Below are positions 20,279 through 34,928 of a stretch of 34,928 nucleotides of DNA, one piece after another (within the stretch, counting starts at the first letter, position 1; the number at the start of each line of letters is the position of its first letter). A program made the position numbers and the translations under genes. A model generated the notes under the pieces. The model worked only from the letters and a program-made list of their open reading frames with translations. It searched no databases and was not told the DNA's origin. Where the stretch lies: positions 1-34,928 of IMG/VR virus record IMGVR_UViG_3300020045_002525. One strand, written 5' to 3'. The DNA comes from a virus. Taxonomy: Duplodnaviria > Caudoviricetes.

Positions 20279-20509
20279 CTATTTATCTTTTTTATCAGAT
20301 TTAACTTCTACAACATCATTTACTTTGATGTCATCTATTGCTTTTTCAGTTTTATCTTTTTTATCAGATTTAACTTCTACAATAAAACCAGCCTCAACCA
20401 GTTTATCAGCATTACCCATCAATTGACTTTCATCAACCTCAGTACCAAATGGAGCAACAACTTTTCCTTTAAGCTGATGTCCAATTACATTTACACTAAA
20501 CTTTCTCAT
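20279..20509 (-). CDS. Small capsid-adjacent protein with a duplicated C-terminal peptide
   Basis: ADKLVEAGFI motif common in genes that follow capsid genes; VEVKSDKKDK occurs twice. Confidence 0.6.
   Translation of the reverse strand: MRKFSVNVIGHQLKGKVVAPFGTEVDESQLMGNADKLVEAGFIVEVKSDKKDKTEKAIDDIKVNDVVEVKSDKKDK
20282..20382. repeat. 32-bp perfect direct repeat
   Basis: TTTATCTTTTTTATCAGATTTAACTTCTACAA at 20282-20313 and 20351-20382. Confidence 0.9.
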
Positions 20510-21582
20510 TACGATGTAGTTTGAAGTGTGTAAATTCTATCAATTGAAACTGGTACTGCTAATGGTGCAGAATGCATCATAAATTCCCAACTCATACGAA
20601 CCTGGTCAATAACATCAAAAATGTTAAATTCAGCTTCTAAAACACCAATATACTGACTTCCAGAAATAGCATCACCCATAACCGCTGGCAATCCAGCAAA
20701 TCCAGTAAATCCTTTAAAATCTTCTGGTAATAAAACTACATTGTTTGTAGCTAAATATCTTTGCTCTGTTCCACTTGCATCCTCATAAGTTTCGTTATAA
20801 GTCCAAATATTAACAATGAAATCCCCAGCACCAACTTGCCCCTGATAAGCTAATCCAGAAACATTATCAAACATAGGCATACCTAAGTCGATTCTGTTAA
20901 TATTTCTAATATCCGCCTCAGCTTGTACTTTAGTAGATGTTTTAAAATTAGTATAAGCAGCAGAACCCATAATTGCATTTACAGTAGTTGAACCAGAACG
21001 TCCAGTAGAACGTAAGAAATCACAACCAGCTTGCAAATCTTTAACCGGGTCTGAAGTAGTTGGAGCAGTCCATTTTTCTCCAGCAACAGATTTAACAACA
21101 ATTGAACCAGCTTTACGCTTAAAATCAATGTTATCTCCATTGTTTAAAATTACAATTCCAGTTTGTAAAACCTGAGCTCTTTGTAATTCAATAGCTCTTT
21201 TGATTTTATCCTTTAAAGCAGCTAATTTAGAACTTGCGCTTTCAAATAAACGTCCAGCAGTCATTCCCTCTGGAGCATTACCAGCACCAAAAGTAACATC
21301 GTAAGCATCACAAGAAGTGAAATCAAACATCTCTTTGAAGTAAGGCGGAACGAAAATCTTTTCAGTTGAACGGTCAAACGTATTTCTTACTGGATCAGTA
21401 CAACGTAAAACATCTACTGCAATTGGCTTACCATTTCTTTGAACTTCAATAGATAATTCTTTTGCACTTGTAGTTTTACTTGGAAAAAAAGCAGCAAAGC
21501 CATCTTTGACTTCAACTGCATCAGAAAAAGTTTCTAATAACGCTTGAGTTATTCCTTTTCTATGTTGATTTAATGTTATCAT
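20509..21582 (-). CDS. Major capsid protein (lambda gpE family)
   Basis: FF P, F.PPYFKE, KI.RAIE.Q..QVL.TG, IDF.R, KW.....DP..DL, SAPLAVP motifs. Start moved to ATG 21582, just after the upstream stop. Confidence 0.9.
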   Translation of the reverse strand: MITLNQHRKGITQALLETFSDAVEVKDGFAAFFPSKTTSAKELSIEVQRNGKPIAVDVLRCTDPVRNTFDRSTEKIFVPPYFKEMFDFTSCDAYDVTFGAGNAPEGMTAGRLFESASSKLAALKDKIKRAIELQRAQVLQTGIVILNNGDNIDFKRKAGSIVVKSVAGEKWTAPTTSDPVKDLQAGCDFLRSTGRSGSTTVNAIMGSAAYTNFKTSTKVQAEADIRNINRIDLGMPMFDNVSGLAYQGQVGAGDFIVNIWTYNETYEDASGTEQRYLATNNVVLLPEDFKGFTGFAGLPAVMGDAISGSQYIGVLEAEFNIFDVIDQVRMSWEFMMHSAPLAVPVSIDRIYTLQTTS

Positions 21583-21583
21583 A

Positions 21584-22018
21584 TTAATTATCGAATTTTG
21601 TAAGTTCAACAGTTGAAGTATCTACGTGAAGTCCAATACTTTCTAAAGCATCTTTTTTAGCAACACCAGCCGCATTAGTTAAAACTAATTGACCACCAGC
21701 AATATCTAATAACTCCAAACCGTTAATAGTTCCTTTTGTTCCGTAGTTCACATTTAATGTAGCATTTGCAGCTAAATCAACAGTACCATCTAAAACCAAA
21801 ACACCTACTAAAGTGTTAGAAGTAGCCACTAAGCTTAAATTTGTACTTGCTGCAACTCTATAAACTAATTGACCAGTTTGCAAAGTCCAAGTTGCCTCTG
21901 GGTCTGAATCGTTTACCAACGTACCAGAATCATATCTATTATCAAATAGAAATACTTTCTTTTTTGAGTAATCCGCAGTCGATTGATTACGAGTTACATT
22001 TCTTTGATTTACATCCAT
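21584..22018 (-). CDS. Head decoration protein (lambda gpD-like)
   Basis: Between protease and capsid genes; LQTGQLV..., LVGVL pattern. Confidence 0.65.
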   Translation of the reverse strand: MDVNQRNVTRNQSTADYSKKKVFLFDNRYDSGTLVNDSDPEATWTLQTGQLVYRVAASTNLSLVATSNTLVGVLVLDGTVDLAANATLNVNYGTKGTINGLELLDIAGGQLVLTNAAGVAKKDALESIGLHVDTSTVELTKFDN

Positions 22019-24462: not shown

Positions 24463-24975
24463 TTATAACTTAGGATAAACTATTCCGTTATGAGTAATTG
24501 TTTGTCCTTTATCAATTTTTAATTTTAATTCTTGCCACTTAAAACTCGTGCCGTCTTTTTTCTTTGCTTGAAAATGAGGCGGGTCTTTAAATGTTTTCCA
24601 ATCACCTCCACATTCCCATCCTTTTGACTTAAAATAATTAGTTATCTCTTTCCAATCAGCAATAGTATCTTTATCAAAATCTCTAATTTGAGAGTAACTT
24701 GCCTCTTCAAATTTACCATCTCCATTGTTATCATAAAGCAAAACAATATCAAAAGCCATTCCGTAATTATGAATTGATTGACCTCCTTTTGCGTTGGTAA
24801 CTTTTGGTTTTTGATTGTATAATTTATCTTGTAAGGCATTTGAACGATAAACATAAGCAAATCTTAATCTCGCTCCTTTTCCTAATAAGTTATTAGCCTC
24901 CAAATATTGTTCTGTAAGCAAATCTATATAATCAGGATGTGCTTCTTTTATTCTTTCAAGTGTTATCTGGTCCAT
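24463..24975 (-). CDS. Endolysin, M15 family (L-Ala-D-Glu peptidase-like)
   Basis: YRS...QD.LY, VTNAKGGQSIHNYGMAFD, W.CGGDWKTFKDPPHFQ (Zn ligands H, D, H). Confidence 0.92.
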   Translation of the reverse strand: MDQITLERIKEAHPDYIDLLTEQYLEANNLLGKGARLRFAYVYRSNALQDKLYNQKPKVTNAKGGQSIHNYGMAFDIVLLYDNNGDGKFEEASYSQIRDFDKDTIADWKEITNYFKSKGWECGGDWKTFKDPPHFQAKKKDGTSFKWQELKLKIDKGQTITHNGIVYPKL

Positions 24976-28492: not shown

Positions 28493-29188
28493 TTAATTTG
28501 CTGGATGCATTAAACAAAATCTAAACTGCTTATCATAAATAGATAAATTTCCAGAATTTGCAACTATTTTAACAGTACCTCCATTTGTTTTAAATGGACC
28601 AGATACATAATGATTTATAGTAATATTAAAAGGATGCTCAATATTAGCTCCTTTTGGAAATCTATGTACAGAATGAAATCTTTCTCCTATTGATGGTATG
28701 TCTATAAAAATAGTAAAATGCCCATCAACATTATTGTTTTTAGCCTTAAACATAAAAGAACTTGACATGAAATCATTTTCAGAAACTGGCAAAACATTTG
28801 AAGTTGCCGTATCAAAAAAAGTAGCGTGTCCACTTGGTAAATTACTGTTTTTAATAGCGCCTTTATTATTAGATAAATTCGCAGTAACTCCCTCTAAAAT
28901 TGATTGAGGACTTCCAACTGTATGCAATGTATCGTCAATAGATTCCCATCCAGTTGATGTTTTGCTTCTTTTCAAAGCCAATAAATCATCAACCTCAGAC
29001 TGAGTATAAACTGGATCAACTGGTTGTCTTGTAGTTACCCAATCTAATAAAGAAACTGGATCACTATTCTTACCAGTTGTATTTTGATATTCAATTCCAT
29101 CTTTTGTAACAACAGAATTTACCATATACCTTTTGTTTGAGTCCCAAACATTATTAGTATTTTGAGTTTGTGCTTTAAACTGTGCCAT
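28493..29188 (-). CDS. Virion protein with N-terminal CBM5/12-like module
   Basis: W.SNKRY..NSVV..DG..Y......N..P....W; YTQSEVDDLL linker; beta-rich C-terminal domain. Confidence 0.55.
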   Translation of the reverse strand: MAQFKAQTQNTNNVWDSNKRYMVNSVVTKDGIEYQNTTGKNSDPVSLLDWVTTRQPVDPVYTQSEVDDLLALKRSKTSTGWESIDDTLHTVGSPQSILEGVTANLSNNKGAIKNSNLPSGHATFFDTATSNVLPVSENDFMSSSFMFKAKNNNVDGHFTIFIDIPSIGERFHSVHRFPKGANIEHPFNITINHYVSGPFKTNGGTVKIVANSGNLSIYDKQFRFCLMHPAN

Positions 29189-30749
29189 TTTGTTCCTCTA
29201 TTTCTGGTTTAACAATAATTGTATCTTCTTTTAATATTTTTTTATAATTAACATCCCAAACTCCTTTTCCTAAATCCTCAGTAGCTTGCTCTCTTGAAAT
29301 AAGGTTTAAATCAATCATTTCTTTAACTGCTTTTACTTCTTTTAAAGGGTCAATATGTGGCATATTTTTACCCATGAAACGACATTGTGAATATGCCTCA
29401 ATAACCATAACATCATCCGATTGTAATGCTGAAATAAAACCTTTTGCCTCTACCTTATTTCGTAAAACTTCAACCTCTAAAAACAATTTGTAAATAGGTT
29501 TGTAAAAATCTTCACTGAATTTATCTCTTGCCAAATCAACAACATATCCAAATGAATTTATGGCCGCTCTACTTGCTGAATAATTAGAATTATACATTTG
29601 CATTGCAACCTCACTTGGAACTCCAACACTCGCACATAAACTATTTAAAACCGCTTTGTAAAATTGCTCGAAATTTGTTTCAATTTCAGTACCAAACGCT
29701 TTCATTTTTGCACCTACTGGCATATTAAATGTTTGGTTTGATGTAGTTTCTGAAATTATATTTGCAAGTCCATCAGCCAAAGCATAACCATTTTGAACAG
29801 TTCCAGTAACTTTCATTTTTTGTTGAAGTGTTTTTTCAACTATACCCTCACCAGTAGAATAATTATCATGCTCAATTGTGTAAGCTATATTTGCGGCTTG
29901 TTCCGCTTTTCCAACTGAAGCCTCAGTGTATCTATCTAACTTATTTAGTTTTTCTAAAACTTGACTCAATTGAGAAATTCCTCTAATGTGGTCAACTCTT
30001 TTTCTTTCACCATAAATTAACCAAGCTAATTTACGTTTAGACTTTTCGCCATAAACGGCAACTCGCTCATATTTTAAATCCTTTTGTTTGATATAAAAAG
30101 CAACGTGCTCACCTCTTTTATCAATTTCAATACCATGATTTATATAATTTCCACGAGCCTCAGCTTCTTTTAAATAATTCGAATTATACGGAGTTTGGAT
30201 ATGACATCCATCAATTAACTGAACATTTAAAATAAGATTTTCAATTCTACAAATAACCAAACAATCACCACCAATAAAAGCTGTTTTATAAGCCTCTAAT
30301 GCTTTTTGATGTAAGTTTTGCATCTTTGAATAATCAGAATATTTAGATTTTGAATACACATTAAATCTCGCTTCAATTGAATTTTTGAAAGTCTCAAAAT
30401 CCTCTTCAATATTTTCTAATGCTAATAAATCCGTATTTGGTTCAGATTGTAATTTTAATCCAGAACATAAAACCCATTGAAAAAAACGCTCAGTAAGAAT
30501 TTTCACAATATCGCTTCTCATTTCAGCATCGTAAGCTCGAATTCTTAACCTCTGATAATCTGGAATTGAATTTGAAATAACACCTAATTCGCCTGGAGTT
30601 TTTTCCCCATCAAATGAACGTGTAATAATTGGATAGTTTTGACCGTAAATTTTTGAACCTCCTAAATCATAAGGAATTTCACTCTTTACTTCTAAATCTT
30701 TTTCTTTTGAAATCGATTTTATTTCTATGTTAGTAAATGGTATTTTCAT
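29175..30749 (-). CDS. Portal protein (lambda gpB family)
   Basis: LR.RA.D, HGIEIDKRGE.VAF, RGIS.L, NYSASRAA, HIDPLKE. Confidence 0.93.
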   Translation of the reverse strand: MKIPFTNIEIKSISKEKDLEVKSEIPYDLGGSKIYGQNYPIITRSFDGEKTPGELGVISNSIPDYQRLRIRAYDAEMRSDIVKILTERFFQWVLCSGLKLQSEPNTDLLALENIEEDFETFKNSIEARFNVYSKSKYSDYSKMQNLHQKALEAYKTAFIGGDCLVICRIENLILNVQLIDGCHIQTPYNSNYLKEAEARGNYINHGIEIDKRGEHVAFYIKQKDLKYERVAVYGEKSKRKLAWLIYGERKRVDHIRGISQLSQVLEKLNKLDRYTEASVGKAEQAANIAYTIEHDNYSTGEGIVEKTLQQKMKVTGTVQNGYALADGLANIISETTSNQTFNMPVGAKMKAFGTEIETNFEQFYKAVLNSLCASVGVPSEVAMQMYNSNYSASRAAINSFGYVVDLARDKFSEDFYKPIYKLFLEVEVLRNKVEAKGFISALQSDDVMVIEAYSQCRFMGKNMPHIDPLKEVKAVKEMIDLNLISREQATEDLGKGVWDVNYKKILKEDTIIVKPEIEEQNGTV

Positions 30750-30752
30750 AAA

Positions 30753-31046
30753 TTAAATATTTCCACCTCTTAAAGTTGTACAACGTCCATTGTATCGGTT
30801 AACATATCGTTGTTTTAATTGCTCTAATGCTAATATTCCATTTTGTAAGTCTTGCATTGAACGATATACGGCTTTTGTTTTCATTTGTCCATCATCCATA
30901 CTCATTTCTATATATCCAGATTGAGATACAGATTCTAATAATGTAAGTTCCATTGCATCAATCAATGCATTTATAGCTATTATTTTGTCGTATAACGTTT
31001 TTCTACAGTCAATGTATTCCGACATTGTATAAATTCCATCATTCAT
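30753..31046 (-). CDS. Head-to-tail joining protein (lambda gpW-like)
   Basis: Helix-beta hairpin-helix pattern (DDGQ......YRS..DL...I..LE); directly upstream of the portal gene. Confidence 0.6.
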   Translation of the reverse strand: MNDGIYTMSEYIDCRKTLYDKIIAINALIDAMELTLLESVSQSGYIEMSMDDGQMKTKAVYRSMQDLQNGILALEQLKQRYVNRYNGRCTTLRGGNI

Positions 31047-31070
31047 AATTAATTGGTTTATTTGTCTTTA

Positions 31071-31078
31071 CAAACTTA
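31071..31078 (-). promoter_or_regulatory. -7 element TAAGTTTG
   Basis: Matches TAnnTTTG, 24 nt upstream of the ATG at 31046, just after a terminator U tract. Confidence 0.5.
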
Positions 31079-31079
31079 C

Positions 31080-31116
31080 AAAAAAAATCCATTCAAAATA
31101 AATTGAATGGATTTTT
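31080..31116 (-). terminator. Intrinsic terminator (possibly bidirectional)
   Basis: Perfect stem AAAAATCCATTCAA/TTGAATGGATTTTT with A/T tracts. Confidence 0.8.
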
Positions 31117-31262
31117 ACGCATTTCTCTTTAAAATTAACCAAAATATAAAGAAAACAAATAACATAACTATGAGCAGTTACATAAATTTTAAATTACTTT
31201 TTTCATAAGTTTTTGTTTTTAGGTTACACATTTTTTTTAATCAGTGTTTTTATATAAGAATT

Positions 31263-31292
31263 CAAATGTATAAATTATTTTTTAATTACAAA
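31263..31292 (-). promoter_or_regulatory. Possible promoter
   Basis: TTTG (31292-31289), 18-nt spacer, TACATTTG (31270-31263). Confidence 0.45.
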
Positions 31293-31612
31293 ATAATATT
31301 GAAATCTTTTTTTATTTTTCGTATTGCATTTTCCTTATTTAATGCTGAAATATAAATACAATTTTCTTTTTTTATTACTATCTTATTCTTTTTTTTAAAA
31401 TTTTTATTAATAGCTTCATTCCAATGAATGTCTTTTATTTCAGGTTCAAAAACTGCCAGTCTTAATTGTTTATTTCTTAAATCAAATTCAAATAAAATAT
31501 GATTTTCATGAGGCATAATTCTTGAATGAAAAATTTTCTGAATTTCAGCTTCTTGTCTTTTTACTTCTTCTATTTTATCCTTAATCTGTAAATCCGAATC
31601 TCCAAATCTCAT
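31286..31612 (-). CDS. Hypothetical protein
   Basis: 108 aa, basic, C-terminal CIYISALNKENA; between terminase and gpW-like genes. Confidence 0.65.
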   Translation of the reverse strand: MRFGDSDLQIKDKIEEVKRQEAEIQKIFHSRIMPHENHILFEFDLRNKQLRLAVFEPEIKDIHWNEAINKNFKKKNKIVIKKENCIYISALNKENAIRKIKKDFNIIL

Positions 31613-31635
31613 AAATTTAATTTTTAAATTATTAA

Positions 31636-33672
31636 TTACTCAATCATTTGAGCGAACTCCTCAAACGTTAATCTACTGTACTTACTATCCGAACGTCTTA
31701 AAATATCAATGTAGATTTCTTTGGCCGCCAAATTATAAACACAAACATCGAAAAAGTGATTCTCAATACTTGTGCTTTTCTTTTTCCAAACAAAACCAAC
31801 CTCAACTCCATCTTTCTCCAATGGAACTCTTTTCTCAGCTTCTAAATGGTTAAAATAACCTCGCATCGTATATTTACCTTGTTCTGGTTGTGGAAAATTC
31901 ATAAATCCACTCGGTTGATAACCATCCATTCCCATCCTTGACTTAATATTTGAAGCCAAAATATCCTTTAATTGGTTGACTTGAAGTATAAACAATTTAC
32001 CATAATTCTCTCTTGAACGGCTAATAATAGGAGTGTCTTTTGAAACTTTTCTATATTCATCCTCAGCATAACCTTTTATACCAACAATAAAAGGATTATT
32101 CTCATTTTGAATAAATTCATAAGCTAATCTTGTAAAATGCCCCGTATCAATAACAGTAATATCAATTCCATACAAATCACCACTTTGAGAATTTAAACCA
32201 GCATTAATAATTCTTTGAAGTTCGCCCCAAACACTAAATTTTTGACCGTGAGAATAAGTCCATTTATCTCTATCAGTATCATCAATTTGCTCCGATTTGC
32301 TTTTTTTCCTACCTCTTTTGAATGTTCCTATTGAACCATGATTAATATGATAAGTTACACCAGTACTAGAATGCGCTATTATTTCCCAATCCAATCTAAC
32401 ATCCTCAATTTCATCATTCATAATACCACCTAAATCGCAAGCCATAGTAATCAATACTATTTTTCCATTTCCATCATCTTGACAAGTATTATCTGGAACA
32501 ACACCAATACCATAGCTTCGAGTATTATTCATTAAATCGCTAACTTTTACAGTTGTGCCTTTATCCTCCCAAGTTTGTCCTAATTGAGTATTTACAAACG
32601 CTTTCAATTTCCCATCATCTATAAATCCACCAGGAGGACAAGCATCCAACCATTTATAAACTAAATCTATCCATGAAGTAAATCCAGGAGGAATAACAAT
32701 TGCATTTAATTGGTAACTTCTAAATTGTGGACGTTTAGGAATTGCGGTCCCAATCCATTTGCCTTTTAAATTATGAAGTTGTTTATCTTTTTCTAAAATC
32801 TTACCTCCGCAATTTTGACATTCATAATGAACACTCTCTGGAATTAATTCAGATTTGTCATTTAGTTCCCATTTAATACCGGCATAAGTTCCATCCTCTT
32901 TTTTAATTTGCCACTCAATAGGAATATATTCTTTACAACTCGGACAATTCCAATGCCATTTACGCTGGTCCCCTAAATTATAAACCTCCTCAATATTTGA
33001 GGTCTGTTTAATCGCTGGAGTTGAAATATAAAATAACTTTTTCATAGATCCAAAAGATGTAGCTCTGTTTTCCATCAAAGAACGAACTGAACCCTCCTTT
33101 TTGTCATTACGCGGTGCAGATTCCCAATCATCAGCAAATATGTTTTTAACAGAATATTGCCTCCATTTGTTTGGATTATTAACACCTAATGCAGTTAATG
33201 AACCTCCAGCAAACTCCTTACTGAAATCAGTATCTCCAGTTCTTTGGTTTTTCTTTTTTACAACATTTGGACGTATTAAATGTGATAATCCCGAATTATT
33301 TAAAACGGGATCCAATCTTGTACGAATAGAAAGTTTTACAAGTTCAACATCTGCAGCAGTATATAATATTGGAGCTGGAATTTCTGAAATAATATAAGCT
33401 ATTCCTGGAATAATTACACCTTGAGTAAATCCACTCTGAGCACATTTCATAACCGCTACCATTTCTACTGGGCTTGTAGTACTCAAACAATCTACAACCT
33501 CACGAGTATAAGGCGAAATATCATATTTAAAATAACCAGTATATCTCGAAATATCAGAGGTTAAATAAATGTTTTTCTCTATCCACACACTTGGTAAATC
33601 TTTTATAATTTTAAAGTTATAAATTGATTCATGTATTTTGTTGTAAGATTTTTTAAAGAATTCTTTTAACAT
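31636..33672 (-). CDS. terL: Terminase large subunit (lambda gpA family)
   Basis: SPY.RE, KCAQSGFT (Walker A variant), ISTP, GDQR.W..CPSC, YECQNC, FVNTQLGQTW, IDTG, NHFFD...Y. Confidence 0.95.
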   Translation of the reverse strand: MLKEFFKKSYNKIHESIYNFKIIKDLPSVWIEKNIYLTSDISRYTGYFKYDISPYTREVVDCLSTTSPVEMVAVMKCAQSGFTQGVIIPGIAYIISEIPAPILYTAADVELVKLSIRTRLDPVLNNSGLSHLIRPNVVKKKNQRTGDTDFSKEFAGGSLTALGVNNPNKWRQYSVKNIFADDWESAPRNDKKEGSVRSLMENRATSFGSMKKLFYISTPAIKQTSNIEEVYNLGDQRKWHWNCPSCKEYIPIEWQIKKEDGTYAGIKWELNDKSELIPESVHYECQNCGGKILEKDKQLHNLKGKWIGTAIPKRPQFRSYQLNAIVIPPGFTSWIDLVYKWLDACPPGGFIDDGKLKAFVNTQLGQTWEDKGTTVKVSDLMNNTRSYGIGVVPDNTCQDDGNGKIVLITMACDLGGIMNDEIEDVRLDWEIIAHSSTGVTYHINHGSIGTFKRGRKKSKSEQIDDTDRDKWTYSHGQKFSVWGELQRIINAGLNSQSGDLYGIDITVIDTGHFTRLAYEFIQNENNPFIVGIKGYAEDEYRKVSKDTPIISRSRENYGKLFILQVNQLKDILASNIKSRMGMDGYQPSGFMNFPQPEQGKYTMRGYFNHLEAEKRVPLEKDGVEVGFVWKKKSTSIENHFFDVCVYNLAAKEIYIDILRRSDSKYSRLTFEEFAQMIE

Positions 33673-33677
33673 AGTTT

Positions 33678-33944
33678 TTAATTAATATTTTTTATCTTCC
33701 AGAAACCAACTTCTTTGAAACTATATGCTATTACGCCATTAACTCCATCTATTGTTTTTTCTGGCTTTTCATCCATCAAAATATTTTCAACATAATCAAC
33801 ATACTCACTTTCATTATAACTATTATAAACTAAAATGAATTTAGGCACAACAGGTTTCATTTCTTCTTTACAACGTTCAATATCCACAGCCCATTCATGT
33901 TCTAATCCAGTAACTTCTATACAAGTAAATGTTTGAATTTTCAT
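33678..33944 (-). CDS. Hypothetical protein
   Basis: Acidic 88-aa ORF. Start moved to ATG 33944 to avoid overlap. Confidence 0.55.
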   Translation of the reverse strand: MKIQTFTCIEVTGLEHEWAVDIERCKEEMKPVVPKFILVYNSYNESEYVDYVENILMDEKPEKTIDGVNGVIAYSFKEVGFWKIKNIN

Positions 33945-33954
33945 AATTATATTT

Positions 33955-34167
33955 TTAAATTTCAATTGTTCCATTACTAAACGGACAATAATTCTTTTTA
34001 GGTTTAGGTATTAAATCCGAATATTCTCTTTTAATTTTTTCACTAATTGCATCACGAATAAATTTTGCTACATTTATTTGATAACTATCCAATTTTTGTA
34101 AAGTATTATGTTGCAATTCCGTAATTTTTACAACTTTTACCTTAGTGTATTTTAAAGGCTTTCCCAT
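33955..34167 (-). CDS. Ribbon-helix-helix-like DNA-binding protein
   Basis: Alternating strand KVKVVKIT, helix ELQHNTLQKL, second helix VAKFIRDAISEKI. Confidence 0.6.
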   Translation of the reverse strand: MGKPLKYTKVKVVKITELQHNTLQKLDSYQINVAKFIRDAISEKIKREYSDLIPKPKKNYCPFSNGTIEI

Positions 34168-34202
34168 AAATAAGTAATACTTTTATTTCGTATATAAAGA
34201 AG

Positions 34203-34589
34203 TTATGCGCAACTCAAATCGACTACGCTAATAATATCCTGCTTGACATATTGGTCTGTAATTATATTTGGCATACTGTGGAAATTTTCAAAGCGAATAT
34301 GAACTTCATCTTGTGCTATCAAAATCGGGTATCTAATACTTCCAGCAACCTTTGCAAATTTCCCTTTTATAATATTTCCGCTTTTATGAATATACAATCC
34401 ATCAAATTTGCTATTCTTTGCAATTAAGCAAGTCTTTCCGCTATAAATTGACCTCATATCATCAAGCGTGCAATTTTCTCTTTTATAACGCTTCACTACT
34501 AATGTAAATGAGCAGCGCATAACAGCACCTACCAAAAAGGCTGGGCTTTCGGCTTCGTTAGAAGCATTTGTGGTTAAATTATCATTCAT
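34203..34589 (-). CDS. Cassette-borne hypothetical protein
   Basis: 128 aa; the first ~25 codons derive from the attC; the TAA stop is the complement of the TTA in the core site. Confidence 0.65.
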   Translation of the reverse strand: MNDNLTTNASNEAESPAFLVGAVMRCSFTLVVKRYKRENCTLDDMRSIYSGKTCLIAKNSKFDGLYIHKSGNIIKGKFAKVAGSIRYPILIAQDEVHIRFENFHSMPNIITDQYVKQDIISVVDLSCA

Positions 34590-34643
34590 TTTTCTAAATT
34601 TATTTTATGGTTAAAATCCCGCCCTTCTGGTAGCTGCCAATCG
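34203..34643 (+). mobile_element. Integron-type gene cassette (441 bp)
   Basis: Begins G|TTATGCGC (34202-34210). Its R'' GCGCATAAC (34515-34523) is the exact reverse complement and is followed by an attC-like hairpin ending at G|TTATCAC (34643). Confidence 0.7.
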
Positions 34644-34650
34644 TTATCAC
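34515..34650 (+). repeat. attC-like recombination site
   Basis: AAC...GTT ends; arms GCACCTACCAAAAAGGCTGGGCTTT (34525-34549) and AAATCCCGCCCTTCTGGTAGCTGC (34614-34637) pair at 20/24 positions with one bulged base. Confidence 0.75.
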
Positions 34651-34844
34651 TCAGCTTTTAGAAAATCGTTACAATTCCGAAAATAACCACCACAATCGAA
34701 ATGATTATTTGTTTTTGGAGTTTGAAACAATACTCTTTTACCTAATTTACATTTTGCGTTTACCAATACTTTTGAAAATAAATTGTCTTTTTCTTTTTGT
34801 ATTGGATTAATAAAGTTTTTGCATTCATTGCATTCTACTCTCAT
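34647..34844 (-). CDS. Small Cys-rich protein (possible Zn binding)
   Basis: CNECKNF...C...C..F; ends TGA TAA C at the attC core. Confidence 0.65.
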   Translation of the reverse strand: MRVECNECKNFINPIQKEKDNLFSKVLVNAKCKLGKRVLFQTPKTNNHFDCGGYFRNCNDFLKAE

Positions 34845-34927
34845 TATTTAGCTATGTTTGTTAAATTGGTTTCAGCTTCTTTTTTTACTTGTTCCGTTCT
34901 TAATTGAACCCAAACACATTGCATAAT
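34844..34927 (-). CDS. 3' end of an upstream gene, truncated by the window edge
   Basis: Open frame ...IMQCVWVQLRTEQVKKEAETNLTNIAK*, with a TAATG overlap into the next gene. Confidence 0.5.
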   Translation of the reverse strand: MMQCVWVQLRTEQVKKEAETNLTNIAK

Positions 34928-34928
34928 T

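Follow-up and report, generated by a model that had tools for sequence, protein, structure and literature searches.

A putative integron-like cassette of a tailed phage with a reversed gene that appears to start within its attC-like hairpin

It is integron dogma that the gene of a cassette must read towards attC in order to be expressed. The system described here shares with classical integrons (class 1, Vibrio) an imperfect hairpin with AAC/GTT cores of which the bottom strand is the better folder, a purine-rich loop on that strand, complementary cassette ends, and tandem arrays beside an attI-like site and a tyrosine recombinase gene (PMC5027507). In integrons, the folded bottom strand is cut at AAC, and the orientation of insertion is thereby fixed (PMC5027507). 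Integron integrases are defined by an insertion in the catalytic domain, I2 (PMC4792948, PMC8138268), which is incompletely conserved within an integron-like subgroup (PMC8138268). Very few integrons are listed in Bacteroidetes (PMC9024848), integrons are rare in phages (21 of 10,705 genomes; PMC9892861), and no reliable model of cassette origin existed as of PMC4792948.

Several described systems resemble the present one in part. Phage CALINs have attC-like sites between small genes and DNA methyltransferases and no integrase (PMC9892861). In the Polaribacter phage P12002L, genes lie on the strand given as bottom for attC1, a site without verified recombination with IntI1, and 'divergent' sites were ascribed to mosaicism (PMC9892861); reversed genes, loop starts, attI-like ends and a short recombinase are not described in the accessible text of that source. 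Gene gp35 of P12002L has complementary ends and a start some 38 bases past the inner core, and the attC2 published for this phage is the far junction of the gp35 cassette. The P12002L sites are about 50 bp long with the ATG downstream, as against 133 bp with an ATG in the loop here, and their kinship was judged by inspection since our site model does not detect them. In Riemerella, a Bacteroidota host, a gene that integrates independently of homology has a short invariant 5' region and, on its 3' side, a stem-loop of 140 bp that has been compared to attC; integration is in the standard orientation, unlike that of the phage cassette, and the likeness is one of description (PMC13148043). Recombination sites with translation signals and core-supplied stops are known from short ORFs in attC and from ORF-11 of attI1, which are top-strand helper peptides for the next cassette, whereas the site described here appears to encode the N-terminus of the cassette protein itself (PMC8876359). 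OTH-22-1, compared by description, is a novel attC-like DNA motif starting with RYYYAAC and found in several phyla, and the accessible text of its account mentions neither phages nor reversed genes (PMC8632094). The open-access literature, with subscription journals mostly outside it, yielded no account of reversed phage cassettes or hairpin-encoded leaders.

The DNA analysed here (the window, 34,928 nucleotides) is a tailed-phage contig with a terminase at 31636-33672, a lambda-type portal at 29175-30749 and a major capsid protein at 20509-21609; nearly all of its long ORFs lie on the minus strand. The contig stops 279 bases past the attC-like site and consequently lacks the phage part that lies upstream in the direction of transcription. 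From the genome records with the same site family, which are almost all Bacteroidota by title, we infer a Bacteroidota host. An endolysin candidate of the Peptidase M15 family is present at 24463-24975. At the opposite end of the window (region of interest 1-1479), G+C content is 43-50% over positions 1-1200 compared with about 30% beyond 1500, and a 332-aa ORF within 1-1479 fuses about 23 phage-type residues to a family-4 glycosyltransferase, with a family-2 glycosyltransferase next to it; the assembly may be chimeric, with a join near 1410, or foreign DNA may have been inserted there. The features treated below are collected in Table 1.

Table 1. Positions of the cassette, its attC-like site and the neighbouring features in the window.
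Feature	Position	Strand	Remarks
70-aa gene (PHROG 25647)	33955..34167	-	occupies the recombinase slot of other phages
Palindrome AAGTA-N-TACTT	34172..34182	.	between docking site and 70-aa gene
Putative attI-like docking site, set against phage transcription	34184..34205	-	matrix ranking
Putative gene cassette, 441 bp	34203..34643	+ (top strand)	crossover points between G and TT at 34202/34203 and 34643/34644
128-aa ORF	34203..34589	- (bottom strand)	23-residue hairpin-encoded leader and 105-residue beta-rich body
attC-like site	34517..34649	+	R'' GCATAAC 34517-34523, R' GTTATCA 34643-34649; minus strand folds
Second in-frame ATG (Met24), inside R'' core (GTT ATG)	34518..34520	-	aligns with the start of leaderless homologs
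Arms of attC-like site	about 34525-34546 and about 34618-34639	+	loop between arms
Loop ATG and A-rich putative initiation region	34587..34604	-	ATG at 34589-34587; A at -1 to -4, -6, -10 to -12, -14 and -15
65-aa resident phage gene	34647..34844	-	stop abuts R' core

The 441-bp unit consists of a 128-codon ORF and a 133-bp attC-like hairpin. Its left end, GTTATGCGC (34202-34210), is complementary to GCGCATAAC (34515-34523) at 9 of 9 positions, as expected of a cassette spanning 34203-34643; the cassette thus has the 5' end complementary to R'' that marks standard cassettes. The gene of a standard cassette lies on the top strand and reads towards attC, while this ORF occupies the bottom strand and leads away from its site. 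A preliminary description of the locus had put the ORF there, with its ATG in the hairpin loop behind an A-rich leader and its stop on the complement of the GTTA core, and the letters agree on both counts, as do the bottom-strand folds on the first: the ATG is preceded by AATAAATTTAGAAAA, the frame crosses the hairpin arm as ...NEAESPAFLVGAV MR, and it terminates as GCA TAA C, the complement of GTTATGC at 34202-34208. Sequence and structure say little about the product. The 128-aa protein had no match in Pfam, and its best PHROG match reached only E 0.049. Its predicted structure has a pLDDT of 91 and the 105-residue body folds confidently alone, and no fold clearly matched that body in structure searches, where the best Foldseek E was 0.12 and the best Z 4.2. 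The position of the gene directly upstream of the terminase suggests an accessory role.

As expected of an attC site, the bottom strand is the better folder and carries strand-marking unpaired features. Folded as DNA, the bottom (minus) strand of the site has a z-score of -2.91 with none of 200 shuffles as good, compared with -0.64 and 52 of 200 shuffles for the top (plus) strand. An alignment of 61 sequences (30 viral, 30 host and the window site) has the 22 hairpin pairs formed in 96.9% of cells, and 12 of the 22 have changed on both sides, a covariation count that kinship among the sequences inflates. One G-T pair, which pairs solely on the bottom strand, is fixed in 59 of the 61 sequences, and one unpaired column marks the strand. 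The more stable fold is that of the bottom strand in 96 of the 101 listed viral and 116 of the 122 listed host sites. R'' (GCATAAC) matches RYYYAAC at 6 of 7 positions. GTT is retained in R' (GTTATCA) as well as at the left end (GTTATGC), both of which, unlike classical cores, fit the remaining positions of GTTRRRY loosely. A further difference from classical attC is that the unpaired region by the core is lopsided, with 5 bases against 1. The site scores 112.8 bits with our site model, to whose training set it belongs, and site-model and pattern scans found it to be the single site of its kind within the window, in which a whole-window repeat search likewise detected no second copy. Rfam gave no match at gathering score over 33500-34928 (three chance matches, E 1 or worse), and none of 50,697 annotated phage records matched the site by blastn. 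A CALIN comprises at least two attC sites and no integrase (PMC9024848); the window holds one, and relatives at the same locus hold 2-4 attC-like sites.

The complementary cassette ends, the bottom-strand folding, the fixed G-T pairs and the host control described below fix the polarity of the site and, at the level of sequence, confirm the + strand as its top strand; a check by asymmetry, folding and host control did not assign the top strand to the minus strand, which leaves the polarity proposed in the preliminary description in place. The opposite assignment would make the hairpin part of an ordinary cassette of the 65-aa gene, and that gene does stop on the outer core, as many standard cassette genes stop at R''. 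We give this reading next to no credence, as it is already contradicted on four points: the TAACAGCACCTA arm of host sites comes directly after top-strand stop codons, both the wobble pairs and the predicted folds point to the minus strand as the one that folds, GCGCATAAC complements the far left end and differs from GTTATCACT, with which the outer core reads on and which does not pair there, and the displayed relatives of the 65-aa gene have no such site. The 65-aa ORF (34844 to 34647) ends TGA TAA C on the core at 34643-34649, as had been claimed, with TGA as the real stop, and is coupled to an upstream ORF. We rejected it as a cassette in its own right, since no matching R'' occurs in the remaining 84 bases upstream and none of the 11 displayed of 16 related loci (near-duplicates left out) has a hairpin leader. 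Its end would be either the docking site's former right half or the terminus of a cassette that is larger or has decayed.

Comparison with other loci supports the same boundaries. Locus L012 holds the same cassette, and its homology with the window spans 34197-34646 only (410 of 447 positions identical), both flanks being different; the counterpart of the window cassette lies in mid-array in L012 and L022. Among the 71 listed viral cassettes with a start in the site, the far end is visible in 54, and in 53 of these the far-end TAAC is complementary to the flank of R''; the site's own R' is complementary to that flank in only 6 of the 101 listed viral sites. In host cassettes, far-end complementarity was found within 150 nt of the ORF start in 34 of 60. 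Stop codons embedded in the core, which had been presented as part of the architecture, are common and not general: 24 of the 54 viral cassettes stop exactly on the far-end TAAC, compared with 100 of 739 ORFs of the same loci and 2 of 43 ORFs of the window, and many of the others stop 3-16 bases earlier. Among relatives of the terminase, whose upstream DNA is short, we found no site-model matches and no exact empty site. Taken on its sequence features, the stretch 34203-34643 reads as a reversed cassette of an integron-like system; by analogy with integrons, we infer that such units would recombine as mobile cassettes.

The orientation of genes relative to the site was compared between bacteria and viruses with one DNA pattern built on both arms. 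Run on viral contigs it gave at least 121 loci of an estimated 230, and on species genomes at least 127 stretches of an estimated 1,900; 101 viral and 122 genome sites were kept for the counts after dropping duplicates and flanks of less than 200 bases (4 viral, 5 genome). The pattern fixes arms and length, so the counts cover the long subfamily only, and sites that are related cannot be counted as independent. At 98 of the 122 listed genome sites the ORF next to the TAAC arm is on the top strand (bottom strand at 8, absent at 16), in line with host cassettes of this site family being built in the standard way. At the 101 listed viral sites it is on the bottom strand in 91 cases, on the top strand in 4, of which 3 are near ties, and absent in 6. 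Flanking genes are mainly top-strand in 64 of 73 listed host loci; in listed viral loci they are mainly bottom-strand in 57 of 69 and mainly top-strand in 12. From this geometry it follows that phage cassettes would be antisense in a host integron, again as proposed. Unlike in classical cassettes, the phage gene lies on the bottom strand and starts in or just after the hairpin: the 91 listed bottom-strand ORFs comprise 64 with a loop start that shares the frame of the core GTT (Val), 7 that start at a core ATG, 19 that start downstream of the site and 1 in another frame. Outside the loop-start picture are 27 of the 101 listed viral sites (the 19 downstream starts, 6 sites without a 45-codon ORF, 1 other frame and 1 long top-strand ORF). 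Phage-type reversed loop-start cassettes also occur within bacterial genome bins at L175, L182 and L279, the latter two on short sequences. All three were considered as host captures of phage cassettes; L175 adjoins phage-like replication genes and is therefore probably a prophage or mis-binned phage DNA.

The preliminary description had predicted that unrelated phage ORFs would share the N-terminal leader. A protein search with the 128-aa ORF gave 91 matches, of which 40 share the body and 51 the leader only; all 51 carry the leader, 50 of them at the N-terminus, on 33 body families that are unrelated by BLASTP. Conversely, the same 105-residue body is found with several other leaders and without any. 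The leader starts in homologs are gene-caller predictions, so any test of the start has to be statistical. The loop holds an in-frame ATG at 68 of the 101 listed viral sites, as against 1 and 17 for the other two frames, and at 14 of the 122 listed host sites, as against 1 and 16. Within codons -6 to -17, stops in the leader frame were found in 18 of the 101 listed viral sites, compared with 54 and 82 in the other frames, and in 60 of the 122 listed host sites. Before the 68 listed viral loop ATGs, adenine occupies position -3 in 90%, -12 in 85%, -11 in 74%, -13 in 63% and -6 in 62%; in F. johnsoniae, adenines at -3, -6, -12 and -13 favour initiation (PMC6847099). The adenine fraction of the loop is 0.50 in phages versus 0.36 in hosts (listed sites), and the mean unpaired probability in the window is 0.61 around Met1 versus 0.22 around Met24. 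Promoter scans remained at or below chance. On these sequence statistics, the loop most likely supplies an initiation region together with a shared N-terminal leader, as had been suggested; with 19 of 101 listed viral cassettes starting downstream and 7 at the core ATG, it is not an obligatory one.

For the 128-aa gene itself, Met24 in the core is a real alternative start, and a more general reading would have cassettes that are real and reversed and yet translated from Met24 or later, the leader being an untranslated by-product added by gene callers. About 30 homologs without a leader, MKYSFTL for example, begin where Met24 lies, the body folds confidently without the leader, and downstream starts are found in the 19 listed viral cassettes and in phage P12002L. 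We nevertheless consider late translation unlikely. A GTT-ATG accompanies the loop ATG at only 12 of the 68 listed sites, 51 of 64 loop-start cassettes lack a Met in the first 10 codons behind the core GTT and 13 lack one altogether, Met24 lies within the stem with a G/T-rich context before it, and the depletion of stops is confined to the leader frame and to phages.

A tree built from 39 homolog bodies, with 2 fragments excluded, is mostly unresolved and therefore gives no direction to leader gain versus loss. Two leaderless homologs (L318 458-903 and L321 1501-1830) still end on the same cassette junction, followed in L318 by another site, and are candidates for cassette decay or for two-gene cassettes; those in L322 and L323 do not end on a cassette junction. 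A widespread cassette body (…MPSCLRLSLKTKW…) retains only the inner arm in L005, L007, L008, L010, L011, L013, L014, L019, L026 and L027. The outer arm is replaced in these loci and a new ATG lies closer to the core, possibly a cassette fixed as a resident gene.

At the far end of the cassette lies the putative attI-like docking site. Among the 665 YAAC sites of the window it ranked first with a matrix from host post-recombinase sites (13.5 bits, next 3.5), which rests on 8 sites picked with a TATA-like pattern, namely the 8 of 9 inspected host first junctions that share a TAAC-T..TATA..CG-like pattern. With a matrix from 10 phage recombinase-adjacent sites it ranked second of 665. Docking sites of the relatives of the 70-aa gene ranked within the top 2 of 665 in three cases and at 19-105 in five with the host matrix. 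An attI-like site, recognized by resemblance, thus heads the array. The claim that a cassette is automatically co-oriented with phage transcription has to be narrowed accordingly: co-orientation does not come from the cassette alone and requires a docking site set against transcription, such as the one at 34184-34205. In the window, 25 nt separate the GTATTA half of the palindrome next to the docking site from the TAAC, and 8 of 8 viral relatives have the same spacing; the palindrome is a possible operator. The 70-aa gene marks the array end in 8 of 8 relatives, with arrays of 2-4 reversed sites upstream in 5 of the 8 viral ones. In 4 of these 5 arrays an N6/N4 DNA methyltransferase is the cassette nearest or next to the array end (L280 1861-2670, L284 992-1765, L285 1875-2750, L287 1976-2692); the frame in which the long ORF comes in from the loop differs in L284 and L287 from that of the core Val, which may reflect a frameshift or a different start. 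The sequence of the 70-aa protein is possibly of the ribbon-helix-helix type; a cluster of that type, with a score of 0.91, 130 features in common and the family on 32% of its members, gives a weak lead in the same direction.

Recombinases in the pattern loci were counted by tblastn, as the motif search misses the phage enzymes. Of 79 listed long genome loci, 18 have a tyrosine recombinase gene; they represent 17 places, with the gene on the top strand in all and upstream of the site in 15. Of 80 listed long viral loci, 5 have one, always on the cassette-gene strand and downstream; tblastn detected none within 4 kb at the other 75. A search with the host enzymes gave 13 viral loci, in 10 of which an enzyme of 265-283 residues starts 36-56 nt after an attI-like AAC on the cassette-gene strand; the site model matches 7 of these 10. 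L317 is an unrelated phage integrase. Host and phage enzymes are 43% identical, and their best NCBIfam matches, NF040815 and TIGR02249, are below both cut-offs, with 102-207 bits for 5 host and 3 phage enzymes on TIGR02249 (cut-off 265). In the host enzyme of L216, the span 242-271 stands where VchIntIA spans 175-246, about 42 residues being missing in the region of the insertion by which integron integrases are defined. These enzymes hence differ from those of classical integrons, and the host ones also in being co-oriented with the cassettes. Judged by these sequence features, the linked recombinases are not IntI proper, and the system appears integron-like in its working while failing integron membership. 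On a viral contig, L305 5947-12036 has a host-type layout with a recombinase, a docking site, top-strand genes and weak minus-strand model matches. Its enzyme scores above the NF040815 cut-off, which suggests a related system outside Bacteroidota.

In the window, whose contig is incomplete upstream, tblastn found no recombinase, and the 70-aa gene adjoins the docking site at the place where an integron would have its integrase gene. The enzyme would come in trans. We favour the host as its source, since host sites are those that the docking site is most like and the adjacent slot holds a different gene; an unsequenced part of the phage is a less probable source, and a frozen relic would be rather unlikely. 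One might instead regard the hairpin as mainly an RNA element (a stabiliser, or a signal for processing or translation control) and let the units move by homologous recombination between hairpins. The mRNA strand does fold strongly (RNA z -4.75), near-identical hairpins on 33 gene families provide homology, and 75 of the 80 listed long viral loci have no recombinase within 4 kb. In hosts, however, it is the non-coding strand on which this hairpin folds (116 of 122 listed), the boundaries lie exactly between G and TT with end-to-end complementarity, and arrays end in attI-like sites beside a recombinase gene, so that we regard an RNA element as very improbable.

Our preferred reading, which we hold with good confidence on sequence evidence, is that the 441-bp unit is a mobile cassette of an integron-like system of Bacteroidota and their phages, with a reversed gene to which the hairpin would supply the start and 23 residues. 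A short tyrosine recombinase lacking the IntI insertion, supplied in trans by the host or by the unsequenced phage part, would cut the folded bottom strand at AAC, and the circular cassette would be inserted at the attI-like site. With the docking site facing against phage transcription, a cassette would be expressed in the phage only if its gene lies on the bottom strand. The purine-rich loop may then have been adapted as an initiation region, A-rich, free of a Shine-Dalgarno sequence and unpaired within the mRNA hairpin.

One narrow pattern leads to an estimated 1,900 genome and 230 viral stretches, which points to a large gene-shuffling system that goes unnoticed, the probable reason being the absence of the IntI signature from its recombinase. 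Such a system offers a mechanism for phage mosaicism, and several relatives carry DNA methyltransferase cassettes. It would also explain a recurrent N-terminal peptide on unrelated phage proteins, by which homology searches are misled, and makes the origin of cassettes open to testing. More speculatively, and with considerable doubt on our part, there may be two cassette pools with one chemistry that are locked apart by orientation, cross-captures being silent, and the phage hairpin may turn captured frames into expressed, mobile genes. If so, host cassettes would be silent in the phage and phage cassettes in the host, and the hairpin, by providing start and leader while the far core often provides the stop, would make any captured frame mobile in one step, a direct route to cassette birth. 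Phage P12002L (L304, NC_028924), which is cultured and lytic, appears to have two runs of reversed cassettes with short sites, at 29200-32500 and 37300-41000, and is a ready experimental model.
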